Positions 8,767 to 33,830 of a DNA stretch of 58,287 bases are shown here, piece after piece; within the stretch, counting starts at the first letter, position 1; the number at the start of each line of letters is the position of its first letter. The notes under the pieces were generated by a model, which saw nothing but the letters and a program-made list of their open reading frames with translations, had not been told where the DNA came from and did no database searches. Position numbers and translations under genes: made by a program. Source of the stretch: an uncultured Candidatus Hydrogenedens sp. (GTDB lineage Bacteria; Myxococcota; UBA4151); contig CACGMS010000003.1 of assembly GCA_902574205.1 (NCBI GenBank), forward strand, positions 1 to 58,287, in the 5' to 3' direction.

Positions 8767-9869
8767 TTTTTAGACCGACGAAGTGGCGCTTGAAACCAAC
8801 GCGTTGGGTTCACTGCGAGCGCATCGCTGCGAAGCTCAAAGTGCAAGACTCCCGAATCACCAAGTAATCCGATAACCGATCCAGCTTGAAGATCATCGCC
8901 CGGCTTCGCCTGAGTTTCTGAAAGCCCACCATAGACGGTGCGCCAGCCACGACCGTGATCAATAACCATCGCCAGACCCAAGCCGGGCGAGCGGCCTACA
9001 AAAGCGACTCTACCCTTTGCAGCGGCGACGACTGGCGCAGTTGCCAAGCCCTCTAAATCAATTCCACGGTTACGCCAGCGAGTGAGCCTATCTTTCGCCT
9101 CTTGCCAGCCGTAACCATTGACGACCTTTCCTGCTACCGGTGGGACTAAAGCACCTCGCTTTAGACCTTTATGAGGCATGTCGAGCATGGGTTTGACTTG
9201 GGCGAGCCAAGCGGCGAGCGCCAGTCGCTGTTGTTCCAGAGCGCGAGCATGGGCGACCGCACGTTTTCGATCGCGACGAACCTCGTTGAGTCGGACCTCA
9301 GCCAGGCGTCGCACTTCGGCACGCTCAGTAAAGAGACGGTCCAGATCGTTTTTCAGTCGTTGTTGTCCCAGCCGGACTTTGGCGAGCCGTGATGTGCTTT
9401 CTTTAAGTGCTAAATCGCTTTGCTCAGCTCGTCGCCATAACGCACTCGAGCGCGCTACACGTTGCCGTTCCATAGCTCTCATCAAAGGTTTATCCATGCC
9501 AACATGGTTCCCTCGAAGAAGTAGTCCGAGTGCTTGCCTCGCCTGCAGTAGTGCGGTTTCAGCGGTCTTTTGCAAGCCAGTCGATTGACTTTCGAGTTCA
9601 TCGAGTTGTTCATCTGAGTCGTTAAGACGCTCGTTGGCAAGACGAGCAGCTCGTTTGGCCTCGCTTAACGCAAATTCGAGATCCTCGAGTGTAGCGACCA
9701 TTCGCGTCTCTTGTTCGGCGAGATCTTTATCGGTCGCTTTACCTCGACTGAGACGGTCGCGTAATGTCTGCAGTTTTTCGAGTGTTATACGAACAGCTTG
9801 CTGATCGTTAATGGCCGTGAGCGCAGGTTGGGGTCCGGGTGATAGAGCGAGCAAAAACGCAAACGTCAT
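8763..9869 (-). CDS. envC: EnvC-like murein hydrolase activator (coiled coil plus degenerate M23/LytM)
   Basis: Long coiled coil; LytM domain with Zn ligands altered (NRGID, YGGL, VLHFELR); follows ftsX. Confidence 0.8.
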   Translation of the reverse strand: MTFAFLLALSPGPQPALTAINDQQAVRITLEKLQTLRDRLSRGKATDKDLAEQETRMVATLEDLEFALSEAKRAARLANERLNDSDEQLDELESQSTGLQKTAETALLQARQALGLLLRGNHVGMDKPLMRAMERQRVARSSALWRRAEQSDLALKESTSRLAKVRLGQQRLKNDLDRLFTERAEVRRLAEVRLNEVRRDRKRAVAHARALEQQRLALAAWLAQVKPMLDMPHKGLKRGALVPPVAGKVVNGYGWQEAKDRLTRWRNRGIDLEGLATAPVVAAAKGRVAFVGRSPGLGLAMVIDHGRGWRTVYGGLSETQAKPGDDLQAGSVIGLLGDSGVLHFELRSDALAVNPTRWFQAPLRRSKN

Positions 9870-11791: not shown

Positions 11792-11920
11792 ATGACGCTA
11801 TCAGAGCTTGCACAACATCTTACTCGTGAAGAGATGGCGGCCTTTGGAATGTGGCCGAGCGCGAGTGAGGAAGACGAGCACTTGAGCGATGATTGTCACC
11901 ACCAAGAAGAACTCAACTAG
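11792..11920 (+). CDS. Unannotated 42-aa acidic small protein
   Basis: GGAG lies 8 nt before ATG; MTLSELAQHLTREEMAAFGMWPSASEEDEHLSDDCHHQEELN; its stop overlaps the convergent sctT stop (CTAG). It is below the ORF-track size cut-off. Confidence 0.45.
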   Translation: MTLSELAQHLTREEMAAFGMWPSASEEDEHLSDDCHHQEELN

Positions 11921-12744
11921 CGCATCAAGCGAAGCAGTTCTTCAAGACGCTGAAGGAAGACGACGCCTTCAGCGGCGAGCACTTGAATGGTGGTCGCTAA
12001 ACCTAACGCAAACAACCAGACGCCTGCGATGGCTTTGGCGGGCAGACTCAAAAAGTAAGCTTGGATTTGCGGGGCTGTACGGTTGAGCAGGCCAAAGGTT
12101 AAATCGGTCAGAAAAACCGCCACAAGTATCGGCATCGCAAGAGCGACTGCGACCATGAGAATACGAGCAGCGCTGACCATGATGAGTTCTGCGAAGGCGC
12201 CGATCCCCGCGGCTTGAAATTGAGGCATCTCGGTCACGGGTAAACCCACAAAACTGGTGAACAGCGCTCCGAGAAAGAAGCGGTGTCCTCCGATACTTAG
12301 AAAGATGACGAGGAACAGTTGAAAGCTCAAATTACCAAAAACTGAACTTCGTTCTTTGAGTTCGGGAACGAGCGCCGTCGCCATATTGGTACCGCGCAGT
12401 AAATCGACCAATCGACCAAGCATGTCAGCGATCAAAAATAATTCGTATAAAATAAAGCCGATACAAAATCCGATAAACACTTCTTTGAGCATCAACACCA
12501 AGAAAGCGATGGGCGTCGTTGGTGGGGGCACTGTGTTGCCTGCAGAAACGACTGGGTAGACCAGCAGTGCGAGCAGCACGGCTAATCCAATCTTTACCGG
12601 CTCTGGTGCATTTTTACCGCCGAGAAATGGGATCATCACCACAACTGGCAAAAGGCGCCCAAGAATGAGACCAAACAGGACAAGTTGCTCGGTGCTTTGC
12701 CTGCTCAGCAGTAGCCTGTCTAAAACCCAACCTACGTCACTCAT
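11917..12744 (-). CDS. sctT: Type III export gate subunit SctT/FliR
   Basis: R...V..PFLGG...P..VKIGLA, KE.FIG..IG, G.LVD..RG, FL..GGH, LLNRTAPQIQAYFLSLPAK; start at the ATGA overlap with sctS. Confidence 0.92.
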   Translation of the reverse strand: MSDVGWVLDRLLLSRQSTEQLVLFGLILGRLLPVVVMIPFLGGKNAPEPVKIGLAVLLALLVYPVVSAGNTVPPPTTPIAFLVLMLKEVFIGFCIGFILYELFLIADMLGRLVDLLRGTNMATALVPELKERSSVFGNLSFQLFLVIFLSIGGHRFFLGALFTSFVGLPVTEMPQFQAAGIGAFAELIMVSAARILMVAVALAMPILVAVFLTDLTFGLLNRTAPQIQAYFLSLPAKAIAGVWLFALGLATTIQVLAAEGVVFLQRLEELLRLMR

Positions 12745-13019
12745 CGCAGCAAGGGCACAAAGCCAGTGAAACACAGATGAGCAAATTGAAGTAAGAAGCC
12801 GCCCACCCAGGCTCCTGTGATGGCGAGCAACAAAAATACCGCAATGACTTTGGGTACAAAGCTCAACGTGGCTTCTTGAATTTGAGTCGTCGCTGAGAAA
12901 AGTGCGACCGCCAAACCAACGACTAGGCTGCCAATAACAGTAGGCGCTGAGGCGAGCATGACGAGCATTAATGCCTCGTTGGTTACCTGCAGGACAAATT
13001 GTTCAATTTGGCCGTACAT
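12741..13019 (-). CDS. sctS: Type III export gate subunit SctS/FliQ
   Basis: SAP..IGSLVVGL.VALFSATTQIQEATLSFVPK. Confidence 0.93.
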   Translation of the reverse strand: MYGQIEQFVLQVTNEALMLVMLASAPTVIGSLVVGLAVALFSATTQIQEATLSFVPKVIAVFLLLAITGAWVGGFLLQFAHLCFTGFVPLLR

Positions 13020-13778
13020 TTATGTGTATCCCATCACTAAACCTTGAGTGAGAAGATGCCAGCCATCCACGAGCACAAAGAGAAGCAGTTTGAACGGTAA
13101 CGAAATCGTTGTCGGCGACAACATCTGCATACCGAGAGCCATCAAAATATTACTGACGACCATATCAATGACCAAGAAGGGCAGAAAGATAATGAAGCCA
13201 ATTTGAAAGGCTTCGGTTAGTTCGCTGACTACAAAAGCCGGGATAAGCACCATATAGTCATCAGCGCTAATACCTGCTCGCTGAGCCTTAGGCCGCATAC
13301 GCTTCGCCAGCATGTAAAACATCTTTCGATCTTTGGCGCTGGCATGTCGTTTGAGAAACTGTCGCATCGGCTCGGCACCGACAATCATCGCTTCTTTGAG
13401 GACACCGAAATTCTTTCCTTGAAGCAGATTTTCACCTTCTGCTTGTTTCGTGACCTCTTGAGCGTCGACGTACATCCGCTCCATCACCGGACTCATGGTA
13501 TAGACTGTGAGAATAATAGCGAGACCGGTAATGACGGTATTCGGCGGTATTTGCTGGGTGCCGATCGCTTGGCGAGCGATGGACAGTACGACCGCCATTT
13601 TAACAAAGCTGGTCACCATCATCAGGACGAAGGGGACGAGTGCTAAGCCAGCCAGCGCCGTCATCAGGATCAGCGGTCGGTTTGCTATACTGTCGTTACC
13701 CATCAACTCGCTGACGTTGAGATTCTGGGCGATAACCAAAGGAGGTGCCACCATGGCACTCGCGATCAAAAACCTCAT
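13020..13778 (-). CDS. sctR: Type III export gate subunit SctR/FliP
   Basis: MMVTSFVK.AVVLSI.RQAIGTQQIPPN; PAFVVSELTEAFQIGFIIFLPFLVIDMVVSNILMALGMQMLSPTTISLPFKLLLFVLVDGW. SFVK is the SctR-type variant (FliP usually SFTR). Confidence 0.96.
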   Translation of the reverse strand: MRFLIASAMVAPPLVIAQNLNVSELMGNDSIANRPLILMTALAGLALVPFVLMMVTSFVKMAVVLSIARQAIGTQQIPPNTVITGLAIILTVYTMSPVMERMYVDAQEVTKQAEGENLLQGKNFGVLKEAMIVGAEPMRQFLKRHASAKDRKMFYMLAKRMRPKAQRAGISADDYMVLIPAFVVSELTEAFQIGFIIFLPFLVIDMVVSNILMALGMQMLSPTTISLPFKLLLFVLVDGWHLLTQGLVMGYT

Positions 13779-14116
13779 CCGTTCTCAGTCTCCGAGACTT
13801 GAGATGAGTGAAGATGAGCCAAGTGCGTGATCGCTCCCTCGTTGGTGCCGATCAAACGACGCTCGCCCTCAATATTGATGATATGAACCGAAGCTTTGGG
13901 TGTGAGCGCAAGGGACTCTTCAATCTCAAGACGCTCACCTTTTCTCTGGCTAAGACCGGGAAAACGCTTGAGAAAGTGCGTTAATAAGAGCATTCCGCCG
14001 ACCACCAGAACGAGGACAAGAACCATCCACACAAGCATCCAGCCAAACGACGTTCCTGTATGGACGGGAACTGTTGGCGGCGGAATCGGATTGGTTGCTC
14101 CGATTAGACTGACCAC
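13775..14116 (-). CDS. fliO: FliO-like membrane chaperone of the export gate
   Basis: One TM followed by LEIEESLALTPKASVHIINIEGERRLIGTNEGAITHL (FliO pattern); canonical position before fliP/sctR. Confidence 0.8.
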   Translation of the reverse strand: MVSLIGATNPIPPPTVPVHTGTSFGWMLVWMVLVLVLVVGGMLLLTHFLKRFPGLSQRKGERLEIEESLALTPKASVHIINIEGERRLIGTNEGAITHLAHLHSSQVSETENG

Positions 14117-14419
14117 TGGCTTACTCGCACACCCAATTCGCCATCGATATTGAGCAACTCGCCTCGACCGACAAGCCGTCCCGCTAGCGTGAGATCAACT
14201 TCAGACCCAACAGGCTTCCCTAGACGTAAAACAGAACCGACTTCGTAGGTCGAGACGTGCGCTAGACTCAGACGAAGTCGACCGAGCTCAGCAGCTAAGG
14301 TCAGTTCGACATCTTCCGCGAGTACGGTCGATAAATCTGCTGCCTGCTGTATTTCCGAAGCTTCGGCCTCGTCGGTATCAGGTTCTGGGGTATGCACTGG
14401 CTCGCTCATGACGGCCTCC
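14104..14419 (-). promoter_or_regulatory. Internal RBS and in-frame ATG14409 producing a 101-aa SctQ-C (FliN-like) chain
   Basis: Minus strand reads GGAGG-CCGTC-ATG-AGC-GAG, in frame, in the linker just before SPOA2. Confidence 0.7.
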
Positions 14420-15225
14420 ATTAGATCGAGTTCGACAATGCGAAAGGCACCGTCTTCAGTGAGTTCACAATCAGCTCGGCGCCGAGCGCCGGGGGCTGAT
14501 AAACCGCAGCGTCCGCTGGGGTTTCCTTCGTCGGATAAGGTCAGGTTAGCATCATCTAATATGATGACATCGCCCGGTTCAATGCTCAGTAATTCCTCAT
14601 GGTTTAGCTTGGCTATGCCCACGCTTAAAGCCATCTCAAAGGGCAATGCATACAGCGGGCTATGCGAAGAGACTTGACGCGTGGTCGGTCGAGCTTCCGG
14701 GCAGTGATGAAAACGAATTTGAATTTGCCCAGCGACCAAGTCTCCGCGACCGGCCAAAATGACCACAGGGCCCTCGCCAAGATCATCGGTCGGCGGGCTT
14801 GATAGGTCAGTCAAGACAGGGACGGGTAAGACGGAAACCGAAGATCTTAGCTGCGACATCCAATCGAGGATGAGGTACTCAAAGACACCGAGTTCGACCG
14901 CTGTCAGCGAACGAGCAGGGCGGGCTTGGTCTTGGGTAGCACCGAGTACTTCATCCACAGCAGCTAGGGCTAGGGGACCTGCCACGCGAACCGAGACGTC
15001 CAGTCCATCGCCACGCCAGCGAAAGCCCACACATTGTTCCTCCGGCAAGGTCCAATCGCCAGCGATCCCGACGACAGACGGCAGATCCGAACATCCAGGC
15101 GGCTTGGGCAGAAGCGCTTGGTTTTCGGTCACCAAGCCAGGCAGACGCTCACGCAGCGTACTGGTTAGTTCCACTTGATCGCTCGTTAGGGAAGGAAGAC
15201 CCTCCCAATTATAGCCCTGTTCCAT
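14104..15225 (-). CDS. sctQ: SctQ (FliM/FliN-like) cytoplasmic ring protein with two SPOA domains
   Basis: GGAGG lies 10 nt before ATG15225; SPOA1 (L...ELL.IEPGDVIILD) and SPOA2 (AELGR..LSL..V.....G.VL.L...GRGEL..IDGELGVRV). Confidence 0.88.
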   Translation of the reverse strand: MEQGYNWEGLPSLTSDQVELTSTLRERLPGLVTENQALLPKPPGCSDLPSVVGIAGDWTLPEEQCVGFRWRGDGLDVSVRVAGPLALAAVDEVLGATQDQARPARSLTAVELGVFEYLILDWMSQLRSSVSVLPVPVLTDLSSPPTDDLGEGPVVILAGRGDLVAGQIQIRFHHCPEARPTTRQVSSHSPLYALPFEMALSVGIAKLNHEELLSIEPGDVIILDDANLTLSDEGNPSGRCGLSAPGARRRADCELTEDGAFRIVELDLMEAVMSEPVHTPEPDTDEAEASEIQQAADLSTVLAEDVELTLAAELGRLRLSLAHVSTYEVGSVLRLGKPVGSEVDLTLAGRLVGRGELLNIDGELGVRVSQWSV

Positions 15226-15322
15226 GGGCACTTGACCTCCCGTGTCTGCGCAGCGCGTGCACGACACCGTCGCAAGCTAGTGGCGCGAGCACAGACCGTA
15301 AAGGGGGCGCGCTCAATCCAGT

Positions 15323-16309: not shown

Positions 16310-19300
16310 TCACGGGATGCTGACGCTAAAGCCATGACGATCGTTTGCGTTCGCCGGGAAGCTGCCGGTGAGTCCGCCTTGATCCGTCAACCGGATGGTC
16401 CAAGTGTAGTCGGAGTTATGGACCAAGGCTGCCTCTCCACTGAGAGGATCAGGCGGCGCTGCGTAGGCTGTATCCACCGGCACCCAAACGATCGGTCTTA
16501 GACCATGAACAGCGTGCCAAACCAACGCGACGACATCATGATTGGTGTCGCCACCCGCTAGGTGGTTTCCAATTCCATTGACGGTCAATCCGCCAGGAAG
16601 ATTCGCCGAAGACAACGTATCGTCACTAGGGTTTGCCTCAGCTGTGCCTAACCAGGCTTCATTGCCTCCAGAGAGGACGATATAGGTGGTGTCGCTTTGC
16701 GCCACAATACTGCAACCTTCGGTTAGCTCCAGGCTATCTCCTGTGCCGCTCGGAGTAATCGTCCAACTTGGCATGACCACCCCCGGGTTTAGTCGTCCGC
16801 CAAGGACTTGAACAGGATTTCCCGTTCCAGGTACGACTCGATAGTCGTCACTGGCTCCAAGACGTGTAGTTTGGAAGTCCGTAGCAACCGTAACCGGTGC
16901 TCCAGCAGGAATGGATGTGATGGTCCAGGGGTCGCCAGGAACCAACGGTTCATCAAGCACGTAGGTCAACAATTGAGCAAATGATGCGAGGACATGACTT
17001 CGACACCAAAGTAATGCTCGTGAGCCGTCTTCACCTAGAGTACTTAAGCGCACTGATGAACATGACGGAAATCCGGCAATCAGGTTTCGGTCATCCCAGG
17101 TGATTGTCCCGCCAGCGTCTGTACCGAGTAGGTGTTGCCCCGACTGGGTGACACGCAGCCATGTGCCATTCGATAAAGCAGTGATTCCGTCGTTTGAAGA
17201 CCAGGCTACTGGTGCTGCTAATCCCGCCATTTGCGCTAAACTGGATGTCCACACATTGTGGTCAAGGTTGAGAATATGAACCAATTGCGAGTTACCGTGA
17301 CTAAACCAGTAAATATCGTCGTTACGACGTACCGCATCGCCAGCCGCAGCAATTGCGATATTTGGTGGGCGCCAGCGCGGGAAGCGCGCCGTAAAGTCGA
17401 CACCACTGGCTAGGTCTGCCGAAAGGTTTCCGCTGCTCCAGATCACAGTGTTGGTGTTGTTCGAGTAGACTTGCACTTCTGCCGTTCGGCTTTGACTGAT
17501 CTGATTAGTCGTAACGTCAAAGGGATCATTACTGGTTGCAGTGAATTCAGGCCAAAGCTCGAGGCTCACGGCAGGGTCATTGGAGTCATTATCGACTCGC
17601 GGGTTCGTGGGGGTTTCGGGTGCAGTATTCGCCTTGTTGAAGATCGTGTTTCCTGAACTGGTTCGAATGCGATCACAAAAGCTTTCGCTCAGTCGCCAAG
17701 TACAATTTAAGCTGTTGTTTGAGCCTAAGCTCAAAGTGGTGGGTTCCGTGACTGTAAAGGACCCATTATTCGCTGTGGAGTCGGCTTGGTTCGTCTCTGT
17801 TCCGCATGTAAATTGACCGACAACTACCATCGACCCACCATTCGTATTCGATCGTGTCCCTGTCATGATGGGTTGATAATCAGCCAGGCCGGACGAGCGG
17901 TTGTTCACGGATGTGCTAAAGGTAGGGGTCGCTGTCCATGTACCGTCAACAGTATCACCTCGAAGCGTGAAACTTGTACCCGTTATTTGTTGGTTACCCA
18001 CGGCATCACGTGCGCGCAAAGTGACACTGTACTCGGTATGGTTCACCCAATTAAATCCTTGAGGCACAAAACTCCAAGCGCCGTTTACTTCGTTGACCGC
18101 AACATTGGACCCGTCGGCTGGGAATCCAGCCGGTAAAGGGCTAATTTGCACGTTGATCCCTACGGTGTCGGCCGTGCCTCTCAAGCCGGCAAGCGCTGTG
18201 GTTCCTGCATTGAGGCAACGAAAGTTACGCGCAACGCCAAATGTCGCTGCCACAGCGGGTGTGCTTAGACTAGGCGCTGTATCCGGCGCCGTGCTATCGA
18301 CGACCAGGGTAAACGGACTACCGCTGGTAAAACCGGTCGCTGCACTCACATCGTCCGCTCGAGGTGTGAGCACAAATTCATCACCATGGGATGCGCTACC
18401 GGGTACCTGATAGTTGACGGTGGTGGAGAAGTTTACGCCGCTGTTGCCAGCGGTTTCACCCACTAGGGTTGTATTGCCCCCAGCCAAAACACTCAGATCA
18501 ACGGTTTCAATGCCCGAGTTGGGATCGGTAGCACTCAGGTTAACCGCGATGGTCTCACCAGCCACAACCGCAAATCGAGCTCCGCCGAGTTGGCGATTGG
18601 CTCCCAACTGGGGAATCCCAACAATCGAAATGGGTGCAACGTCATCGAGGACACTGAGTAGAGTGGATGCAACGGCCGAGTCATTGGTTGCGACATCGGT
18701 TGATTGAACATGAACCGTGACTTGGGTGCCATGCGTGAGCGTTGATGCGACGGTGAGCTCAGAGTTGGTGGTGGTCGTTGTCGGCGCGCCGAGGATCGTC
18801 CGGCTTATTGGAGAAAAACTACCCTGAGCAGGAACGTCTAAAGAAAAGCTCAGACTTGCCACACCTGAGGATGCATCATTTGCTGTAGCTGTCATCGTCA
18901 CGCCATTGGTCAGACTGACCTGGGTTGGCGGTATAACCCAGCTCACGGTGGGGTTCGTGACATCTCTTATGGTGATGGTGACCGTTGCGGTTCCATCCGT
19001 ACTGAACGTGCTCTGATCCGTAGCGATAACGCTGACATTTTGGCTGCCAAGAGTTCGGCAATCAGCGGGAATGGTCCAGGTTCGCTGTACGCTCTGTTCT
19101 GTCGTCTCGCCGCCGAGGGTGACCGGATGAGGCGCAGAGATCGTTCCGCAGGGAACAGTGAACGACAATCCCGCCAGTCCGCTGCTTGCATCGGTTACGG
19201 TGGCGGTCATCGTGACCGAGGTTGAGACATCGACGGTAGTCCCCGAGAGAATGAGCGCCGTGCTCGGTGCTTCGTCGTCTCTAAGGGTGAGCTGATGTTG

Positions 19301-22300
19301 AACCGATGTTGCTGCATTCCCGGCGCCATCTTGTCCGCCTAAAGTCAGCGTGATCACGCCCGGGGGACAGCCTTGAAGACCACTCAGGGTAAAGGTTTGA
19401 TCGGATAGTGCCGGCCCGTTGCTAACTGCTAGTATGCCGCCGTTGCTGACCGTGCCGCAGCTGCTGTTTAGCGTGATGCGTGCGACCCCAGCGCCAGCGT
19501 CGGTCGCCCGAACTAAGATGTTCGCAGAGGCGCTCGAGTTAACCGTTGTTGGGGGGGATCGGAAACTCACTACTGGATCGGTTGCGTCGACAAGGTTTAG
19601 GCTGAGTGTAGCTGGGTTTGACGTATTCCCTGCAGCATCCACCATGCGGACTTGGACGTCTTGTATACCGACCGAGTCGCAATCGCTCGGTACCGTCCAA
19701 CTCTGACTGACCGACACGAGATTTTTCGGCTGATTATTAAAGCTGTAGGGGCCGGCGCTACCGCAAGGAAGCGTGAATTCAGCGGAGGCTAATCCTGAAC
19801 TCACATCCTGACCGCGGATTTGCAGTTGAATCGAGTCACCGGTGTTGATCTGCACCGGCAAGGGGTTGGTAATGGCGACTTGCGTCGGGGGTTCTACGTC
19901 ATCGACGAGTCGCACAGTTGCCGCTGGTGTGGTCGTGTTCGATTGAGCGGATCCATCGATCGCTGAGGCTTGAAGATTCACCGACAGTTGATGGGTGGCA
20001 TCTGAAGCAACCGGCAACGCAAAGGTGTGCGTGCACACTTCTGTGTTGTTGCAGTTGTGGGTCAACGTTTGATTCAGCTCCGCAGCGCTCAACTCGATCC
20101 GGGCGATACCACTTGAGCGGTCACGAGCCGTGACACGAATGGCGCTGCTGGCGCCCGTGTTGAGTTGATCGGGTAGCGAATTGATTGAGACTTGGATGGG
20201 AGCAGTTCGATCAACGACGCTGAGGCGCAGGTTTCCCGTCGCCGTCAATTGCGTTTGGTTGCCTTCACCATCGGTCGCAGTAAACAGAATGCTGTATTGT
20301 CCTTCTTCGGCATCGCTTGGAATCGCCACGGTGAAGTCTTGGTTCTGGCTGGCGACGCGATCGTTCGGCGTATAGTTGACAGTTTGAGTGCGCTCAATTT
20401 GGTTGTTTGAATTGAATTGATTGATGGTGGTGACATAACTCGTTTGCGCAACAACGCCATTGAGGTCACGCGCTCGGATACGAAGGTTGGCACTTCCACC
20501 GACGGTACCTTCCGTGACCTCAGTGACTGTGATGATCGGTCCAGCCTCATCGCGGATCGTACCCGACGCCGTGATGGTTCGCTGGTTTGACGCGGCAGCC
20601 TGATCGGTGGCGGTTACAGAGACCTCAACAGGCAAGCCCGTGCCGATCGAACCGGGGTTTTCGGCGACCGTACCTGTAAAGACGACTGTCCCTTGATTCA
20701 CTACACTCTGGTTGTTCCATGTAATGTGTTGAACGTTGCTCACTTGAATTCGGGCAATACCGGTTGAGTTGATGTCGGTTGCGTTGACTTCGAGTCGAAC
20801 CGGTCCACCGGGTACTAAGATGTTGGGGTTAAACATCGCCGAAACCGATGGTTGCACGTTATCAACCAGATTAAATTGCACACGTTGTCCATCGCTTGAA
20901 TTACCTGAGTCATCGGTAATCCGAGGGACCGCAGAAATCGTTCCTTCTTTTGCGGTGATAGGAATCGGAATGCTCACGCCAACAGCGTTTGCCTCTTGCG
21001 ATGTGTCGTCATCGAGAACTCTGGTCATCGATTGTGCTCCGACTTCGGTTTGACCCACGAGCAGATCGACGAGGCTGACCGAGGCGATGTAGCGAGCAGC
21101 GTCGGAGCCGCTAATCTGAACACTGGCTTGTCGACCATTGCTCAGATTGAGTGATCCTCCACCGCTCACTTGAGATAGCCTTGGTGGTTGGTTGTCTTGA
21201 GGTAAAAATGAGAGCGTTGAAGAGGATGGGTTGGGTGGAGTCGCATTATCCCAAACGGTGACTCGAGCGGTCCAATCTGTGATCGCTCTAAGATCGTTTG
21301 GCGTCGGTAGCTGAAGGATCATTGGACTGGCGTAAGCATCCAGCTGGTTTTGCGCCGGATCAATCGATTCGACCTCACTCTCGACCGCTGGATCACCTTG
21401 TGAGTTTTCGACGCGAAGTTGGAGCCGTGAGATGGCGCCAAAGGTATCGGTTGCGCTTACACTGACGCGTAAACGCCCGCCGACTTCAGGTTGCGCCGGC
21501 GAGCCTGACTCATCGAGCAAGACAATGTTCGTGATGCTGGGCGCCACATCGTCATTAATCTCAAGGTTAAACGGTTCGGCGAGCCCTGCGTTGTGATCGG
21601 CGCCAGTACCCACATCATCAAACCCGCCGGCGATGAGGTTAAAGCCCTGGCCGTCTGGACCGTCAGGTGCCTGAATTTGAAAATTTTGCTCCAGGCTGCT
21701 GCTCAGGTCTGGACAAGCATCTTCGTCAGGTGGTGGTGCCGGGGGAGAACCATCAACTTGTGTCCACAACTGGCGCATATTGCTGTGCTCATCGACGCCC
21801 TGGACTGTGACCTCCAACTGCGCCCCGGGATGGACCCCATCACCAGGGGTCAGTGCCCGCGCTGTTTGTCCATCAATTAGCCAGCGAACCCGGGTAATCG
21901 TGACCTCGGGTGCTGTTGTATCAGCACAGGTTCCAATACATAGTTGACGCGCTTCGATCGCCGTTTTGTTGGCGGTTGCAGCACGGTCGGCAACTTCGAG
22001 GAGGTCAATGGCTAAGGTGCCACTACGCAGTCCGACAGGAACCGGAACAGCGATGATGGCAATTTCATCATCAGCCTGCGGAACGAATCCAGTTAGACTG
22101 CCCGAGATGGTTTTTGTGATGCAGCCATTGCTCAAGATGCGCAGTCGGTAGTTCAGCGCTGCCGCTCCGCTGTGCCGATCATAGACGCGCACTCTCAAAG
22201 CAATCGCACGGTCTGGGATCAACCGCTCGGGTTGAAGCAGCTGAACTTCTGGTGCCGAGGTGTCGGCGACGGTTGCTTGGTGAACAGGCGAGCGAGCAAA

Positions 22301-25417: not shown

Positions 25418-25565
25418 GGTTGCCCTTCTTTCAGTAGAGTTAGTCCTCAAAAGTGAAAATTAAGCAGAAAAAAAGTTTTTGAGTAAATGCTGGGGCGGCC
25501 GCGTGCCGATCGCCTTTGAAGGGACGCGAATAAACACACAGGATTTAGGAAAGGCCATAGCGATC

Positions 25566-28265
25566 ATGGAGCGAAGCATCGAGACCAAGGCAACCGAAAC
25601 TCAATCAATAAATGAGTGGACTATTCAGCGATTTTTTACCCAGGCTGGTGAATCAGTTTGGGATACTGTGACCTGGGTTCGTCGAGAGGCGAAAGTCACA
25701 GGCATGAATGGCGAAACGATCTTTTGTCAAAAGGATGTCGAGTTCCCTGAGTGTTGGTCTCAAACTGCGGTCAACGTCGTCACAAACAAATATTTCCGAG
25801 GGGCACTTGGTAGTCCTGAGCGTGAATATTCGGTCAAACAGTTGATTGGTCGTGTTGCGAATACGGCTGCTGATTGGGGCATCAAAGCGGGTTACTTCAA
25901 GACCGCTGAAGAAGGTGAGATTTTTCGCGACGAACTTACATGGATTTTGTTGCACCAGCACGCAGCGTTCAACAGCCCGGTCTGGTTCAATATGGGTGTC
26001 GAAGAAAAACCTCAGGTGAGCGCCTGTTTTATCAACGAGGTCAAAGATACCATGGGTGACATCATGGACCTGGCGAAGACCGAAGCGATGTTGTTCAAAT
26101 ATGGTTCTGGAGCGGGTTGTAATCTGAGTACGATTCGCTCATCTCGTGAGTTTCTCAAAGGTGGAGGTGAAGCGAGTGGACCGGTCAGCTTCATGCGAGG
26201 CTATGATGCCTTCGCTGGTGTGATCAAAAGTGGCGGAAAAACTCGACGAGCGGCTAAGATGGTTATGCTCGATGCCGACCATCCTGACATCATGGAATTT
26301 ATTCGCTGCAAAAAGGAAGAGGAGCAGAAAGCTTGGGCGCTTATCGATGCGGGCTATGATGGCGGCTTTAACGTCCCCGGTGGTGCCTACGATTCGGTGT
26401 TCTTTCAAAATGCGAATCATTCGGTGCGTGTTTCGGATGAGTTCATGCAAGCGGTTGTCGATGATACGACCTACAGCACCAAAGCGGTGGGCGATGGTTC
26501 ATCGGTTGAGGAACTAAAGGCTCGCGAAACGTTGATGGAAATTGCAGAAGGTACGCACGTTTGCGGTGACCCTGGTGTTCAGTACGATTCGACGATCAAT
26601 GATTGGCATACGTGTTCGAATACAGATCGTATTTATGGATCCAACCCGTGCTCGGAATACATGTTCTTGAACTCGACCGCGTGTAACTTGGCGAGTTTGA
26701 ACTTGATGAAGTTTCGTCAGGCCGATGGTCGCTTTGATATCGATGCCTTTGAGCACGCCGCAGAGCTCGTCTTTATGGCTCAAGAGGTCTTTGTTGATGA
26801 GGCGAGTTATCCCACGCCTTTGATTGGCGAAAATAGTCGTAAGTATCGTCCAATTGGTTTGGGTTACGCGAATCTTGGTGCTCTTTTGATGAGTAAGGGA
26901 ATGGCTTACGATTCGGATCAAGGTCGTGCGTATGCTGGCGGGATCACTGCGCTGATGTGTGGAGCTGCCTACCGGACCTCTGCGCGGCTTGCGGAGCGTA
27001 TGGGCGCCTTTGAAGCGTTTGATTACAACGCCGAGCCGACCATGGATGTGATGCGCAAACATCGCGCTGCCGTTGATGGTATCGACTTGGCTTATGCCCC
27101 TGCTGATTTGGTTGCTGCGGCGAAAGTGGCTTGGGACGAAGTCATCGATAAAGGCGAGAAAACCGGGTTGCGTAATGCTCAAGCTACGGTACTCGCACCG
27201 ACTGGAACCATCGCCTTCATGATGGATTGCGATACGACCGGTGTTGAGCCGGATATCGCCCTGGTTAAATACAAGAAGCTCGTCGGTGGTGGCTTGATGA
27301 AACTGGTCAACGGTACGGTTCAGATGGCGCTTGAGGAACTCGGTTACAGCTCAGATGCTATCGGGAGGATCAATGCACATATCGATGCGATGGACACGAT
27401 TGAAGGTGCCAAAGATCTTAAAGATGAGCATTTGAGCATCTTCGATTGTGCCTTCAAGGCAGCCAATGGTGAGCGAAGTATTCGTCCTGAAGGTCATCTG
27501 CGTATGATGGGGGCTGCTCAGCCCTTCTTGTCAGGAGCAATTTCAAAGACGGTCAATATGCCAGAGGATTGTACGGTCGAAGAGATCTTTGATGCCTACG
27601 TTGAGGCTTGGCGCCTCGGGATTAAGGCCGTTGCCATCTATCGTGATAATTCCAAACGGACACAACCTTTGAATACGAGTGCTCAGAATGATGACGAGCC
27701 AGCGAAAGAAGAGATTCGACAAGTCACCAAACCGCAGCGACGGCGCTTGCCCGATACACGCAGCTCGATCACGCACAAGTTTAGTATCGGCGGTAACGAG
27801 GGCTACGTGACGGTCGGTTTATACGATGATGGCACGCCGGGCGAAGTCTTTACGGTGATGGCGAAGGAGGGATCGGTTGTCTCTGGTTTGATCGATGGAT
27901 TCTCGACGATGACGAGCTTAGCCTTGCAGTATGGGGTTCCGCTCGATGTGATGGTCCGTAAGTTTAGTCACACGCGATTCGAGCCCAGTGGCTTTACTGG
28001 GAATCGTGAGATACCGATGGCGAAATCGGTCCTCGATTACATGTTCCGTTGGCTCGATCGACAGTTCCATGCACCAGCACCTGTTGAGGGAAAGGCGGTT
28101 CAACCTGATCTTCCGGGTACGTCACCTGAGCCGATACACGTTAAACTCAAAGCTGCTGGTGAAGCAGCGACCGGTCCACTTTGCAGCAATGGCTGCGGAC
28201 CCACGGTGCCCAATGGGGGCTGCTACATCTGTCCAAGTTGTGGTGAAACGACCGGTTGCGGCTGA
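25566..28265 (+). CDS. nrdJ: Class II (adenosylcobalamin-dependent) ribonucleotide reductase with C-terminal TSCPD domain and Zn ribbon
   Basis: FNSPVWFN, SACFI, GGKTRRAAKM, SNPCSEY, CNLASLNL, APTGTI; C-terminal SITHKFSIGG..GY.TVG.Y.DG.PGEVF and CxxxC...CxxC. Confidence 0.96.
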   Translation: MERSIETKATETQSINEWTIQRFFTQAGESVWDTVTWVRREAKVTGMNGETIFCQKDVEFPECWSQTAVNVVTNKYFRGALGSPEREYSVKQLIGRVANTAADWGIKAGYFKTAEEGEIFRDELTWILLHQHAAFNSPVWFNMGVEEKPQVSACFINEVKDTMGDIMDLAKTEAMLFKYGSGAGCNLSTIRSSREFLKGGGEASGPVSFMRGYDAFAGVIKSGGKTRRAAKMVMLDADHPDIMEFIRCKKEEEQKAWALIDAGYDGGFNVPGGAYDSVFFQNANHSVRVSDEFMQAVVDDTTYSTKAVGDGSSVEELKARETLMEIAEGTHVCGDPGVQYDSTINDWHTCSNTDRIYGSNPCSEYMFLNSTACNLASLNLMKFRQADGRFDIDAFEHAAELVFMAQEVFVDEASYPTPLIGENSRKYRPIGLGYANLGALLMSKGMAYDSDQGRAYAGGITALMCGAAYRTSARLAERMGAFEAFDYNAEPTMDVMRKHRAAVDGIDLAYAPADLVAAAKVAWDEVIDKGEKTGLRNAQATVLAPTGTIAFMMDCDTTGVEPDIALVKYKKLVGGGLMKLVNGTVQMALEELGYSSDAIGRINAHIDAMDTIEGAKDLKDEHLSIFDCAFKAANGERSIRPEGHLRMMGAAQPFLSGAISKTVNMPEDCTVEEIFDAYVEAWRLGIKAVAIYRDNSKRTQPLNTSAQNDDEPAKEEIRQVTKPQRRRLPDTRSSITHKFSIGGNEGYVTVGLYDDGTPGEVFTVMAKEGSVVSGLIDGFSTMTSLALQYGVPLDVMVRKFSHTRFEPSGFTGNREIPMAKSVLDYMFRWLDRQFHAPAPVEGKAVQPDLPGTSPEPIHVKLKAAGEAATGPLCSNGCGPTVPNGGCYICPSCGETTGCG

Positions 28266-28271
28266 GTTCTA

Positions 28272-28706
28272 TTAGTCGAAATCGGACGGGCGTTTTCGCC
28301 CCTGTTTGGTGTGGGCGCGTTGGCGCTTGCCTTCAAGCCGGCGTTCTTTTGAGCGTCGGCTTGGTTTGGTTTTCAGGCGGGGCTTATCTCGCTTGAGAGC
28401 ATGGACAATCAGCGCAGTTAGTCGTTGCCGTGCTTCGGCTCGATTTCGGTGTTGACTACGATGGGTGTCGACATGGACTTGGATGCTACCGTCTTGAGTG
28501 AGACGATGACTCAAACGAGTGTTTATGCGAGCCTTAGCACTGGCACTGAGAACGGCGCTATTTTGTGGCTTCCAACTGAGTGTGACTCTTGAGTGTGTTT
28601 TGTTGGTGTGTTGCCCGCCAGGACCACCGCTCAGACTGGTTTGTTCAATAAGTTCGGCCTGCGGAATGAGCCCATGAATACCGAGATCAAGACCGTCGCG
28701 ACTCAT
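28272..28706 (-). CDS. arfB: Alternative ribosome-rescue peptidyl-tRNA hydrolase ArfB
   Basis: SGGPGGQHTNK (GGQ), RSQHRNR.EA..RL, basic tail TKPSRRSKERRLEGK. Confidence 0.93.
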   Translation of the reverse strand: MSRDGLDLGIHGLIPQAELIEQTSLSGGPGGQHTNKTHSRVTLSWKPQNSAVLSASAKARINTRLSHRLTQDGSIQVHVDTHRSQHRNRAEARQRLTALIVHALKRDKPRLKTKPSRRSKERRLEGKRQRAHTKQGRKRPSDFD

Positions 28707-28708
28707 CC

Positions 28709-29266
28709 TTAGTAGGCTATAAATTCGGCAAAGACCACGGCGAGTGGTCCAAGGGCAGTTCCAAGCAAAATACCGAGCAGTACATCAAATGGGAAGTGTA
28801 CCCCAAGGTAGATACGACTCAGCGCAATAGCCAGCCCAAGACAATACAACGGCAAGGCGACGTTGGGATACAATACAGCAACTGCGGTCACGATCGTCAT
28901 TGCTTGTGTGCTGTGACCCGATGGGAAAGAATTTCCAAAAGGTTCATCGATGAGCCGTCTATCCAAGCCCGCTTCGAACGGGCGCGGGCGCTGAACAGCG
29001 AATTTGAGCAAGTTGGTTGAGGTCACTGATAAGAGACCACCGAGGACCATGATCCAGGCGAGTTCCTGGCCGGCAGGCCCTGAAAAAGCGCAGACCATTC
29101 CGAGCACGACCCATGCGCGTGTATCCCCCAAACCCGTGATCCATTCGACCAGGTTGGTCAGGCGTTCTGGTCGGAAGGTCGTGCAGGCACGAAATAGCGC
29201 ACGATCTAGACGGATCAGTTGACCCAGTAGATCATCGCGCTGGTGTGGAGGAACCGGCTCAGTCAT
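28709..29266 (-). CDS. PAP2-family phosphatase
   Basis: K..VQRPRP, SFPSGHS, SRIYLGVHFPFDV. Confidence 0.92.
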   Translation of the reverse strand: MTEPVPPHQRDDLLGQLIRLDRALFRACTTFRPERLTNLVEWITGLGDTRAWVVLGMVCAFSGPAGQELAWIMVLGGLLSVTSTNLLKFAVQRPRPFEAGLDRRLIDEPFGNSFPSGHSTQAMTIVTAVAVLYPNVALPLYCLGLAIALSRIYLGVHFPFDVLLGILLGTALGPLAVVFAEFIAY

Positions 29267-29272
29267 TGCTCA

Positions 29273-30031
29273 TTAAATGTTCATTCCACCATCAAGTTCA
29301 AGACAGCGACCGGTGAAGAAATCGTTTTCGAAGATAAATTTCACAGCCGTGTACACTTCTTTAGGGTCGGCGAAACGTCCTAATGGGACCATTCGACTTA
29401 AGCCTGCTCTGGCTTTTTCAGGCATTTGCAACAGGATGGGTGTGTCAACAGGACCAGGAGCGATAGCGCCTGTACGAATGCCGTATCGGCTCAGCTCTTG
29501 GCTCCATAATTTCGTCATGGCGACCAAGCCCGCCTTTGCAGCGCTGTAGTTCGTTTGCCCGACGTTACCTTTACGGCTGATTGAGCTAATGTTGATCATG
29601 CATGCTGGCCCGACTTCGTGACGCGCCGCCATGGTGGCAAACTCACGAGCACACAGAAAGGGACCGGTGAGATTGACGTCAATGACTTGTTGCCACTTTT
29701 TCATGCTCAAATTACTGATCTCGCCGGTATCTCGGTCCTTTTTGATCAGTAAACCGTCACGAATGATTCCTGCATTGTTGATCAGTCCGTTGACTGAACC
29801 CATATGCTTGTAGGCCACCTCAAATAGGCTGGCAACGCTTGCCTCGTCGGCAACATTGCATTCGACTCCAAAGACCGCTCCATCGGATGCCTTAGTGATT
29901 TCAGTGAGTGCGTCCGTATTGACGTCAGCGGCAACGACCTGAGCCCCGGCTGCGGCTAATTCGAGGGAAAAGGTTCGACCCATACCGGATGCTCCTCCGG
30001 TGACGATGACTTTAAGTTCTTCGATGCGCAT
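29273..30031 (-). CDS. Short-chain dehydrogenase/reductase (FabG-like)
   Basis: TGGASGMG, NNAGI, YSAAK; AGGAG RBS before ATG30031. Confidence 0.92.
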   Translation of the reverse strand: MRIEELKVIVTGGASGMGRTFSLELAAAGAQVVAADVNTDALTEITKASDGAVFGVECNVADEASVASLFEVAYKHMGSVNGLINNAGIIRDGLLIKKDRDTGEISNLSMKKWQQVIDVNLTGPFLCAREFATMAARHEVGPACMINISSISRKGNVGQTNYSAAKAGLVAMTKLWSQELSRYGIRTGAIAPGPVDTPILLQMPEKARAGLSRMVPLGRFADPKEVYTAVKFIFENDFFTGRCLELDGGMNI

Positions 30032-30201
30032 GGCAACTCCTTCTTGATGGTGGTGCAAGGGCGCTACCGCAAAGCATCGTTTCTGCCCATATGGATTTAA
30101 AAATCATTGGTTTGAAAGGTGGTGATTTCGTTGTGGGCTCGACGAAAAGAATTGGTAATACAAGAGGTTATGGTGTTGGTGTTTGGCCTTTTATCTAAAG
30201 G

Positions 30202-30228
30202 TGAACTCTGATAAACTTCGGCCGATAA
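30202..30228 (+). promoter_or_regulatory. Sigma28 (FliA/SigD)-type promoter of the flagellin gene
   Basis: TGAA-N15-GCCGATAA against consensus TAAA-N15-GCCGATAA; perfect -10 ends 45 nt before the flagellin ATG. Confidence 0.75.
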
Positions 30229-30230
30229 CG

Positions 30231-30266
30231 GTTGCATGGACGCAACTGTAGAAACGACCGCAAGGA
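30231..30266 (+). promoter_or_regulatory. Two CsrA/RsmA-type ANGGA sites in the flagellin leader
   Basis: GTTGC-ATGGAC-GCAAC (ANGGA in a hexaloop on a 5-bp stem) and AAGGA overlapping the Shine-Dalgarno, 26 nt apart. Confidence 0.5.
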
Positions 30267-30273
30267 AGATGGC

Positions 30274-31080
30274 ATGAAGATTCAGTCCCCCGCTTCAGCC
30301 CTAAGCTCAAAGCAAGTTGCTCAAACTCAAGAGCGCATGAACCAACTGTTTGATAAAATCAGTTCTGGTGCACGGATCACCAAGGCTGCAGATGATGCGG
30401 CTTCGCTCGCAATTTCGTCGGCGATGGAGAGTCAGATTTCGGCGCTGCGTGTCACGCGCCAGAACGCGAATGAGGCCGATAGTTTGCTTCAAGTAGCTGA
30501 CGTCGGTGCCGAGCAAGCGAGTGAAATTCTTGGGCGAATGCGAGAGCTCGCTGTTCAGGCGTCCACGTCGACACGATCCGACGCTGAGCGCGCCGCAGCT
30601 CAAATTGAGTTTGGCAGCTTACAAAGCCAACTCAATGATGTGGCGACGAACACGGAGTTCAACGAGCGGTCGGTGCTCGATGGTGCTCAAACCTTTCAGT
30701 TTCAGGTCAGCACCGACGGCACGCCCGTTGAGGTGACGACTACCGAAGGCGTGAGCGCATCGGATTTGGGCATCGAGGGGAGCAGTGTAGCGTCGCAGGC
30801 CGGTGCTCAGGCAGCTTTGGCAGCCATTGACGAAGCCGTTACGAAAGTCACCGAAACACGCAGCCGCTTGGGTGCAGGCTCAGCGCAGTTACGATCAGTA
30901 AGTTCATCAATCGAATCTGCCGTAGAGAATACAGTGGCTGCGAACAGTCAGATGCGCGACCTCGATATGGCGGAGGCGATATCTGCTCAGGCTCGCGAGT
31001 CGATCCTGCAGCAAAGCAGCGTCGCTATTTTGATTCAGGCAAACGCTCAGCCGCAGGCAGCATTAAGTCTGATTGGTTAG
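30274..31080 (+). CDS. fliC: Minimal flagellin (D0/D1 only, 268 aa)
   Basis: ISSG.RI.KAADDAASLAIS, LGRMRELAVQAS, NTEFN...VLDG, RS.LGA, RDLDMAE, ILQQS...IL.QANAQPQAALSLIG. Confidence 0.93.
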   Translation: MKIQSPASALSSKQVAQTQERMNQLFDKISSGARITKAADDAASLAISSAMESQISALRVTRQNANEADSLLQVADVGAEQASEILGRMRELAVQASTSTRSDAERAAAQIEFGSLQSQLNDVATNTEFNERSVLDGAQTFQFQVSTDGTPVEVTTTEGVSASDLGIEGSSVASQAGAQAALAAIDEAVTKVTETRSRLGAGSAQLRSVSSSIESAVENTVAANSQMRDLDMAEAISAQARESILQQSSVAILIQANAQPQAALSLIG

Positions 31081-31108
31081 CTCGACACAGCAGCAGTTTA
31101 GTGGTGTT

Positions 31109-31142
31109 GCGGCGAGCCATGGGCTCGTCGCCTCACTTTTTT
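31109..31142 (+). terminator. Intrinsic terminator after flagellin
   Basis: GCGGCGAGCC-ATG-GGCTCGTCGC (10-bp stem, one G-U) followed by CTCAC and T6. Confidence 0.7.
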
Positions 31143-31193: not shown

Positions 31194-33830
31194 ATGAAGA
31201 CCATGGGCGCCGATGAACTGCGTAAAGCCTTTTTGGATTTCTTTGCGAACCAACAACACAAAATTCAGCGCTCGGCACCGTTGGTGCCGCAAGGTGATGC
31301 CACTTTATTGTTCGTCAATGCGGGCATGGTTCCATTCAAAGAGATTTTCACAGGGCGCCAGAAGCGACCGTCTGCCCGGGCGACGTCTTCGCAAAAGTGC
31401 GTTCGAGCTGGCGGCAAGCATAATGACCTTGAAAATGTTGGCGTGACCGCAAGGCATCACACCTTCTTTGAAATGCTCGGGAACTTTAGTTTTGGTGATT
31501 ATTTCAAGTCAGAGGCTTGCGCTTGGGCGTGGGAGTTTTTGACTCAAGAATTGGGGTTACCGCAGGATCGGTTGTGGATCACCATTCATGACAGCGACGA
31601 TGAAGCGCATGAGATCTGGTCCAAAGAGATCGGTGTTCCCGAGGAACGTATTTTTCGCTGCGGCGACGAAGATAATTTTTGGGCGATGGGCGATACAGGG
31701 CCATGCGGACCGTGCACCGAGATTCATTGGGATCGACGTCCGGATGAAGGGGGTGACCCGCTCGCTGATGACACGCGTCTGCTCGAGTTATGGAATCTGG
31801 TGTTCATGCAGTTCGAGCGCAGCGCCGATGGGCAACTCACAGAGCTTGCAGCTAAGAGCATCGATACGGGTATGGGGTTGGAGCGAATCGCTGCGGTCCT
31901 GGTCGGTGAAGAGAGTAACTACCACACGGATGTGTTCCTGCCGATCATTGAGGGAACCGCTGCTGACGCAGGCGTCACATACGGTCGAGCTGATTCGCCG
32001 ACCGATATTGCGTTGCGCGTGGTGGCTGATCATGCTCGCGCAACGACGTTTTTGGTCGCTGACGGCGTTCTGCCGTCGAACATCGGGCGTGGATATGTCT
32101 TGAGGCGAATTATGCGCCGCGCCATTCGCCAGGGTCGAACGCTTGGGTTTGATACCAATTTCTTCGCTGCCGCTTGCCAGCGCGTGATCGAGCGCATGGT
32201 CGGTGCATACCCGGACCTGAAGGACGCCAAAGAGTTGATTCTTAAAGTCGCTGACAACGAGGAGACAGCATTTCGCCGAACGCTCGATCGAGGTTTGGGT
32301 TTGTTGAATGAATCGCTTGGCGCGCTGAAGGCCGGGGATTCACTGCCCGGTGATACGGCTTTTATGCTGTATGATACCTTTGGTTTTCCAATTGATCTGA
32401 CCCGTTTGATCGTCAGTGAGCAGGGTTTTGTTGTTGATGAACCCGGCTTTGAATCGGCTATGGCAGCGCAACGTGAGCGCAGTCGCGGCGATTTAGGTGT
32501 GGCGGGTACGGACGCGATTTACCACCGTTTAGCTGGTGAGTTAGGACCGACCAACTTTGTGGGTTACCCGACGGCCGAGGGGCCGGGCTTGGAGGCGGTG
32601 AGTGAAGTCGTTGCATTGGTTGTTGATGGCGCCGATGCTGGGCGTTTAGCGACGGGTGCTCATGGCGTAGCTTTACTCAAAGATACCCCCTTTTACGGCG
32701 AGAGTGGTGGTCAGATCGGCGATGCGGGCACGCTATCTTGGGATGGTGGTTGTGCAACGGTTCATCACACTGGCAAAAATGAAGGTCTTCATACGCTTGA
32801 GATTAAGGTGATTGAGGGCGCGCTCACTGTTGGGCAGCGCGTGGAACAACGCGTGGACGGCGACCGCCGTCGGTCGATTCGGTCGCATCACAGCGCAACG
32901 CATCTGCTGCACTCTGCTCTGCAGGAAGTCCTCGGTGAGCATTGTAAGCAGGCAGGGTCAGCGGTTCATCCGGACCGCCTGCGTTTTGATTTTACGCATT
33001 TCTCTGCCGTTACGCCCGATGAGATTTGTCAGATTGAAAGCCGCGTTAACGCGTGGATTTGTACAAACGCTGCGGTGGATACGGTCGTCATGGATCTCGA
33101 TAAGGCTAAAGAGGCTGGCGCGACCGCTATGTTTGGCGAAAAGTATGATGAACATGTGCGGACGGTTCGTATCGGACCGGAGAGTTTTGAACTGTGCGGT
33201 GGAACCCACGTGGATCGTGCAGGGGATATTGGATTCTTTCGCATCGTGACTGAGAGCGCGCTCGCCGCAGGTGTTCGGCGTATTGAAGCGGTAACGGGTT
33301 TATCGGCCTTAGCGACCGTTCATGCCGATCAAGAGCGAGCCGTGCAGACCGCTGCGTTACTGAAGACGACTCCTGCACAACTGGCTGAACGTATTCAGGG
33401 TATGCAAGCGCGACTCAAAGAGACAGAGGCTGAACTCACTGAACTGCGTCGCCAGATGGCAGCGTCTCAAAGTACCGGTTTGCTGGATCAGATTGCAGAG
33501 GTTGAGGGCTTCAAAACCTTGAGCGTTGTGGTTCCTGATGCCAAACCGAGCGATCTCAAGGAGCTCGCCGAAAATCTTCGCGATCAAATTGGTGATGGTG
33601 TGATCGTCCTAGGTAGCGCACATGGCCCCAAGGCCTTTCTGCAGGTCGTGGTCAGCGGCGCTGCAGGGAAGCATCTCCATGCCGGGCAATTGGTCAAGAA
33701 GTTAGCTAGTCATATTCGTGGAGGAGGCGGAGGACGCCCTGATATAGCTCAAGCCGGTGGAGGTCATCCGGACGGTTTACCTGGAGCCATCGACGCCGTT
33801 GCCGACGCCTTGCGAGAGCAGTTGAGCTAG
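31194..33830 (+). CDS. alaS: Alanine--tRNA ligase
   Basis: LLFVNAGM..FK, HHTFFEMLGNFSFGDYFK, IDTGMGLER, editing HSATHLLH and ELCGGTH, GGGGGRPDIAQAGG; GGAGG RBS. Confidence 0.99.
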   Translation: MKTMGADELRKAFLDFFANQQHKIQRSAPLVPQGDATLLFVNAGMVPFKEIFTGRQKRPSARATSSQKCVRAGGKHNDLENVGVTARHHTFFEMLGNFSFGDYFKSEACAWAWEFLTQELGLPQDRLWITIHDSDDEAHEIWSKEIGVPEERIFRCGDEDNFWAMGDTGPCGPCTEIHWDRRPDEGGDPLADDTRLLELWNLVFMQFERSADGQLTELAAKSIDTGMGLERIAAVLVGEESNYHTDVFLPIIEGTAADAGVTYGRADSPTDIALRVVADHARATTFLVADGVLPSNIGRGYVLRRIMRRAIRQGRTLGFDTNFFAAACQRVIERMVGAYPDLKDAKELILKVADNEETAFRRTLDRGLGLLNESLGALKAGDSLPGDTAFMLYDTFGFPIDLTRLIVSEQGFVVDEPGFESAMAAQRERSRGDLGVAGTDAIYHRLAGELGPTNFVGYPTAEGPGLEAVSEVVALVVDGADAGRLATGAHGVALLKDTPFYGESGGQIGDAGTLSWDGGCATVHHTGKNEGLHTLEIKVIEGALTVGQRVEQRVDGDRRRSIRSHHSATHLLHSALQEVLGEHCKQAGSAVHPDRLRFDFTHFSAVTPDEICQIESRVNAWICTNAAVDTVVMDLDKAKEAGATAMFGEKYDEHVRTVRIGPESFELCGGTHVDRAGDIGFFRIVTESALAAGVRRIEAVTGLSALATVHADQERAVQTAALLKTTPAQLAERIQGMQARLKETEAELTELRRQMAASQSTGLLDQIAEVEGFKTLSVVVPDAKPSDLKELAENLRDQIGDGVIVLGSAHGPKAFLQVVVSGAAGKHLHAGQLVKKLASHIRGGGGGRPDIAQAGGGHPDGLPGAIDAVADALREQLS

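Follow-up and report, generated by a model that had tools for sequence, protein, structure and literature searches.

The flagellin gene at positions 30274 to 31080 most probably serves an uncultured marine member of the Myxococcota as its fifth, accessory flagellin, in a flagellum that is conventional and fully encoded. The gene lies in a window of 58,287 nucleotides, by which we mean the whole stretch of DNA that was analysed, corresponding to contig C3 of the metagenome-assembled genome G000 (2.02 Mb, 141 contigs, 59.8% complete). The flagellin unit is self-contained between an SDR gene and alaS, with its own leader hairpin, Shine-Dalgarno site and terminator. The features of the locus are as follows.

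29273..30031, minus strand: SDR (short-chain dehydrogenase) gene, divergent neighbour outside the unit (Pfam adh_short_C2, 5.9e-48).
30202..30228, plus strand: sigma-28-like match TGAA-N15-GCCGATAA, with the -10 box at 30221-30228, read directly.
30209..30217, plus strand: extended -10-like element TGATAAACT (TGnTAnnnT), a candidate promoter from the ortholog alignment.
30229..30248, plus strand: leader hairpin (7-bp stem, loop AUGGAC) with an invariant GGA in its loop; candidate upstream CsrA site.
30262..30268, plus strand: Shine-Dalgarno sequence AAGGAAG, which includes the second GGA and stops 5 nt short of the ATG.
30274..31080, plus strand: flagellin paralog, D0/D1 only, 268 aa (ATG at 30274, stop at 31078-31080).
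31109..31142, plus strand: intrinsic terminator from the terminator scan, with a 10-bp GC-rich stem (31109-31131), CTCAC and T6 (31137-31142).
31194..33830, plus strand: alaS, downstream neighbour outside the unit (Pfam tRNA-synt_2c, 1.3e-202).

What the preliminary description had read from the letters was found in place: TGAA (30202-30205)-N15-GCCGATAA (30221-30228), the two ANGGA sites (ATGGA at 30236-30240 and AAGGA at 30262-30266) and the terminator, with both its 10-bp stem and its run of six Ts. Profile matches agreed on the SDR gene and alaS as flanks, while the reading frame, the Pfam matches and the full-length alignment agreed on a 268-aa flagellin without D2/D3. The gene had also been called solitary, which is true of its neighbourhood only, since contig C9 carries a canonical flagellar cluster along with the other five Flagellin_N genes.

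Matches to Flagellin_N occurred at six places in the genome, namely the window gene and five positions on C9. The first stretch of C9 encodes, in order, FliO, FliP, FliR, FlhB, FlhA, FlhF, a MinD/FlhG-type ATPase, a sigma factor, FliJ and FlgF; the next one FlgG, FlgA, FlgH, FlgI, FlgJ, FlgM, FlgK, FlgL, FliW and one flagellin; and the last one FliD, FliS, three more flagellins, FlaG, a Maf-type protein and PseB-type sugar enzymes. csrA is located between flgL and fliW. The sigma factor passed the FliA models (TIGR02479 with 212 bits, cut-off 189.6, and also NF005413), FliP passed the flagellar model TIGR01103, CsrA scored 75.9 bits against an equivalog cut-off of 73 and FliW (PF02623) reached 99 bits. 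The search for flagellar genes elsewhere that the preliminary description had proposed therefore recovered fliA, fliW, csrA, fliS, fliD and flgK/L in this genome, and fliF in G002. FliG was not found in G000, which is 60% complete and in which C9 is cut just upstream of fliO, and neither fliE-N, flgB-E nor the hook genes were seen in this incomplete genome itself. FliG was present in 5/5 other genomes of the order; a contig end of G002, from the same genus, encodes a sigma-54 activator, FlgC, FliE, FliF, FliG, FliH, FliI and FliK; and MotB_plug proteins were found in 6/6 genomes of the order. The premise of a flagellin with no flagellar genes around it thus does not extend to the genome, as the gene is no orphan: the cluster lies on C9 and fliE-K are found in relatives. 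A regulon elsewhere with several ordinary flagellins had been expected to make the gene routine, and C9 does carry the flagellar cluster and four more flagellins. Between the alternatives put forward at the time, that of a flagellated Myxococcota lineage was supported, with rod, ring, export-gate and regulatory genes encoded together with the flagellins.

Several other observations were made on the flagellar loci of the order. After the flagellins and flaG, C9 carries a flagellin glycosylation island (25464-30068; L010:5464-10068) that encodes a PseB-type dehydratase as well as a Maf-like protein of 838 aa with an MptE-like domain. The FliO reading frame (C9 32-1141, L009) encodes 369 aa, of which only residues 237-299 form the FliO domain, after a long unannotated N-terminal part; Myxococcota FliO proteins with extra domains have been described (PMC12248157). 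A perfect sigma-54 match, TGGCACGCACTTTGC, was found at C9 ~9470-9490 (L009), just upstream of flgF-flgG-flgA-flgH-flgI-flgJ, and a sigma-54 activator (a response regulator with Sigma54_activat and HTH_8) precedes flgC-fliE-fliF in G002 (L125:3777-5252). Directly after fliW, C9 encodes a more divergent flagellin, fla1 (18510-19343, L009), with 29-31% identity to the others, in which RSQMAATFTQLN replaces LGAxQNRL; it is kept in the genus, forms its own deep clade and has a leader with two GGA hairpins. In the second genus, reading frames of 732-736 aa (G004:C15:7765-8322 and G005:C136:7383-7940) have an N-terminal region that resembles the flagellin N-domain, matching query residues 3-186 with E ~1e-14, and could encode a giant flagellin or a FlgL-like protein.

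Model myxobacteria are non-flagellated. Among the sampled Myxococcota genomes, 21/41 encoded FliG. Flagellar assembly genes have already been reported in uncultured Myxococcota genomes (bioRxiv 10.1101/2021.07.06.451402; PMC12248157) and the Myxococcota have been counted among the motile phyla (bioRxiv 10.64898/2026.06.16.732483), while none of these cited surveys shows a flagellated Myxococcota cell. Inferring a flagellum from genomes of uncultured Myxococcota is not new.

Conservation was analysed across the order, which comprised six species genomes from two genera with five flagellin paralogs per genome. The order RNR - RF-1-domain protein - PAP2 - SDR - flagellin - alaS was kept in 6/6 species, and both genera shared a collinear block that takes in ftsE and SctT/R/Q and reaches as far as alaS. 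The syntenic SDR/alaS flagellins formed a single clade (support 100/100) on a long stem branch. When outgroup flagellins were included, the support of the clade was 99, and it was sister to the order's own fla2/3/4 with support 80. This position, together with the conserved synteny, indicates an old internal duplicate rather than an insertion. The GC content across the locus was uniform (0.49-0.57), and the word "inserted" used for the gene found no support in either composition or gene order. Horizontal insertion was rejected on the uniform GC, the kept synteny and the sister relationship to the order's own flagellins. As the tree and the gene order show, the window gene is the product of a duplication of the lineage's own flagellins that preceded the split of the two genera, and it has kept its position between SDR and alaS ever since. 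Within the genus, dN/dS of the SDR/alaS flagellin was 0.05-0.12, with dS saturated, and the gene is therefore considered functional; it evolves faster than the cluster flagellins while still being under purifying selection. A metagenome scan added three further orthologs only (96, 76 and 48% identity), the remaining 76 loci being generic flagellins with ~36-43% identity, so that the covariation statistics given below rest on six sequences.

At the protein level, the window flagellin matched Flagellin_N (PF00669) with 105 bits (cut-off 26.6, E 4.5e-30) and Flagellin_C (PF00700) with 63.9 bits (cut-off 23, E 1.8e-17), and it aligned end to end with PDB filament flagellins of 270-280 aa, the best being 6t17 (2.3e-39). 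The AlphaFold2 model (pLDDT 79.1) displayed the D0/D1 helices and a beta-hairpin, and Foldseek matched it to the filament cores of Kurthia, Caulobacter, Shewanella and E. coli with TM values of 0.77-0.81. Both the D0 helices and the C-terminal ...QANAQPQAALSLIG are canonical. The motif changes that had been noted, LGAGSAQL for LGAxQNRL and the N-terminus MKIQSP, were confirmed, and so was the retention of the '..EN..' motif in the alignment, whose Asn may correspond to the putative FliW contact N255 of B. subtilis Hag. All orthologs in this genus carry a degenerate form of LGAxQNRL, and IGAVQNRLE is intact in the second-genus orthologs and in the cluster paralogs fla2-4; LGAGSAQL thus reflects a change at the level of the genus rather than a trait with which the clade began. 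Among the nearly invariant flagellin sites, G44S, G68A, E76D and G77x are changed in the clade in both genera, whereas R122D, Q203S, N204A and N212S are changed in this genus only. The N-terminal segment is 2-3 residues shorter.

These substitutions at invariant sites, QNR included, could reflect an altered or non-filament role, to judge from the alignment. The protein would then be a secreted factor similar to Campylobacter FlaC, a decoy or sensor that titrates FliW, or a substrate of the needle-less type III system. Such a role would explain why the clade sits on a long stem branch and evolves fast, why D1 positions that are invariant elsewhere have changed and why this genus has lost QNR. 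The shortened N-terminal segment also fits it, as does the fact that SctR/T/Q share a conserved chromosomal block with the gene in the two genera. We consider it very unlikely, however, given the canonical D0 helices and C-terminus, a full length that matches filament flagellins by sequence and by predicted fold, second-genus orthologs that retain QNRLE and a leader design identical to that of the cluster flagellins. As for the Sct genes, the export genes nearby had been described as T3SS*-like, and SctT/SctR/SctQ (window 11917-15267; FliP-, FliR- and FliN-like) indeed matched the non-flagellar models, in a block collinear with that of the second genus (G004:C9 40064-43308). Since the FliP encoded on C9 is flagellar, there are two separate type III gates. 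SctR/T/Q lie ~15 kb from the flagellin with no operon link to it, and the housekeeping genes RNR, PAP2 and SDR stand in between; because the collinearity reaches ftsE and alaS, it represents general synteny and not a linkage between Sct genes and flagellin. The earlier suggestion that the flagellin is a substrate of the needle-less T3SS* received no support, as a dedicated FliP/FlhA/FlhB gate and FliS are encoded. As an accessory flagellin, the protein would instead be exported by the flagellar type III apparatus of C9, with FliS as chaperone, and would form a minor part of the filament or occupy a specific position in it.

At the 3' end of the unit, the terminator folded with -24.7 kcal/mol (z = -3.1), its stem was 100% paired over the six orthologs with compensatory changes in 4/9 pairs, and the T-run was present in all sequences of the genus. 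No T-run terminator was found ahead of alaS in the second genus. At the other end, the leader alignment comprised six genus-level sequences, in which 97.6% of the cells of the leader hairpin were paired, compared to 29-41% pairing in slid controls, with compensatory changes in 4/7 pairs. The hairpin also belongs to the minimum-free-energy fold (z = -2.6). The GGA of its loop occupies positions 30238-30240 and that of the Shine-Dalgarno site positions 30264-30266, the latter within a CAAGGA that was invariant in the six sequences. Similarly, the leaders of the four C9 flagellins present one GGA in a 4-7-nt hairpin loop and another near the start codon (AAGGAGGA in three of them and AUGGAGCC in fla1). 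The leader of the SDR/alaS flagellin in the second genus is different. The genome thus has csrA and fliW, and the leader has two GGA motifs, the first in the loop of a hairpin and the second overlapping the Shine-Dalgarno site, all of them sequence marks of a target of the FliW-CsrA partner switch. Because this CsrA-type design is found in all five flagellins, control by FliW and CsrA is the best reading of the leader, and the switch is most likely what controls the window flagellin, with binding predicted from the leader sequence. Of the regulatory reading offered earlier, the part concerning CsrA and FliW gained support from csrA, fliW and the covarying GGA hairpin. Translation would then be blocked, as in the four cluster flagellins, by CsrA bound to both GGA motifs, that of the hairpin loop and that of the Shine-Dalgarno site, and FliW would relieve this block while flagellin is being exported. 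The segment protected by FliW lies in the D1-C region (PMC6070490), and the EN motif of the window flagellin aligns with that segment.

Transcription, which would stop at the gene's own intrinsic terminator, could be started either by FliA or by the housekeeping sigma factor through the extended -10 element. If the gene were a class III FliA (sigma-28) unit, its transcription from the TGAA-N15-GCCGATAA promoter would have to await completion of the hook-basal body and export of FlgM. The -10 box agrees with the consensus at 8/8 positions and the -35 at 3/4, with the canonical 15-nt spacing, and an exact GCCGATAA is expected only ~0.007 times in the 240-nt spacer (the 2.02-Mb assembly has 119 exact copies, both strands counted). 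The box was kept in 8/9 orthologs as GCCGATAA/G, CCCGATGA, GCCGATGG/GA or ACCGAAGA, with 0-3 changes, the maximum of three being in G004. Both fliA and flgM are present in the genome, and a canonical CTAAA-N15-GCCGATGA site on C2 indicates that the sigma-28 consensus may apply in this organism. On the other hand, the -35 TGAA was kept only in the window and in L042, a metagenome contig with 96% identity, and the box is absent from the other four flagellin genes. G003 has no recognisable -10 box, yet it keeps TGnTAnnnT, the hairpin and the Shine-Dalgarno site. Moreover, the leader hairpin starts one base after the box. As sigma-28 promoters start transcription ~7 nt downstream of the box, the 5' arm of the covarying hairpin would be lost from such a transcript. 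Regulation by FliA from this site is consequently possible but rather doubtful. The fully wired sigma-28 promoter described earlier is a candidate promoter, with a mostly conserved box and with fliA in the genome but with a TGAA -35 that is not conserved.

Recognition of TGATAAACT (30209-30217) by the housekeeping sigma factor as an extended -10 would place the 5' end inside the GCCGATAA stretch, so that the mRNA would open almost directly with the hairpin. All five defining bases of TGnTAnnnT (T, G, T, A and the last T) were invariant in 9/9 orthologs from both genera, G003 included, while the flanking bases varied, and a start 3-5 nt before the hairpin would leave both of its arms in the transcript, which the covariation calls for. 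This reading is a plausible one that we would still place below an even chance, since no conserved -35 is found at 16-18 nt and the model does not account for why GCCGAT is so strongly conserved. A generic sigma-70 scan returned no promoter (-35/-10 pair) upstream of the window flagellin. Were the extended -10 to be used, transcription would be independent of FliA and the coupling to the flagellum would be purely translational, through CsrA and FliW.

Genome-wide, the combination of a TAAA-like -35 with a GCCGATAA-like -10 gave 131 matches, mostly inside coding sequence, from which no FliA regulon could be defined without gene calls. No common sigma-28 or sigma-54 promoter was apparent upstream of the four cluster flagellins, either by eye or by regular expression. 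flgM and fla1 share CTAAA-N16-GTCGTWGA (C9 14596-14624 and 18425-18453, respectively), with the fla1 copy invariant in three genomes, and this may be the real form of the FliA promoter in the lineage. Apart from these elements, the motif TTTGGCCTT (window 30185-30193) was present in most orthologs of the genus, ~15 nt upstream of TGnTAnnnT, as TTTGGTCTT in G002 and with only AGGCCTT left in G003. GGCCTAAAC recurs upstream of fla1 and flgF on C9, and the motif may be a regulator binding site.

Altogether, these results correct a tempting misreading, as there is no flagellin stranded in a non-flagellated myxobacterium. They document, in a small marine order of the Myxococcota, a complete flagellar regulon with five flagellins, a glycosylation island and a FliW-CsrA module, which coexists with the kind of needle-less T3SS that is typical of the Myxococcota. 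The fifth flagellin, conserved yet divergent, provides a modest lead on the composition of multi-flagellin filaments, and the uniform GGA-hairpin leaders a modest lead on the reach of the FliW-CsrA switch, although neither is a new kind of system.

Several D0/D1-type paralogs, as found here, are also present in Caulobacter crescentus (FljJ-O, from two loci), Shewanella (FlaA/FlaB), Vibrio cholerae (FlaA-E) and Campylobacter (FlaA/FlaB). In these multi-flagellin systems too, at least one paralog lies away from the main cluster with its own promoter and terminator, and the predicted fold of the window flagellin compares to the FljK/L/M/N and Shewanella FlaA/FlaB filaments with TM values of 0.77-0.81. 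They differ from our case in that the host is here an uncultured member of the Myxococcota and that invariant D1 sites have diverged, with QNR lost in this genus. C. jejuni FlaC is a secreted, non-filament flagellin-like protein. Like the window flagellin, it is short, has conserved termini and is encoded apart from the main flagellin genes, but all flagellins in G000 are equally short, so that a small size is no distinguishing mark, and, unlike in FlaC, nothing here points to secretion of the window flagellin without polymerisation. The flagellar surveys of the Myxococcota (10.1101/2021.07.06.451402; PMC12248157; 10.64898/2026.06.16.732483) were similarly built on gene sets from metagenome-assembled genomes, whereas this order and this paralog are without description there.

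The closest parallels for the regulation are the flagellin-FliW-CsrA mechanisms (PMC6529632, PMC6070490, PMC4894983) of Bacillus subtilis, with Hag, FliW and CsrA (PMC6529632, PMC6070490), and of Campylobacter jejuni (PMC4894983). As in those systems, csrA and fliW are located here near flgK/flgL and a flagellin gene. The likeness to Hag-FliW-CsrA extends to the leader, in which a hairpin presents one GGA in its loop while the other belongs to the Shine-Dalgarno site, and to the kept EN motif. Unlike in that system, the hairpin directly follows a putative -10 box, the gene order is csrA-fliW, the partner switch is predicted from sequence and five flagellin mRNAs, one of them from an unlinked gene, appear to share the design.
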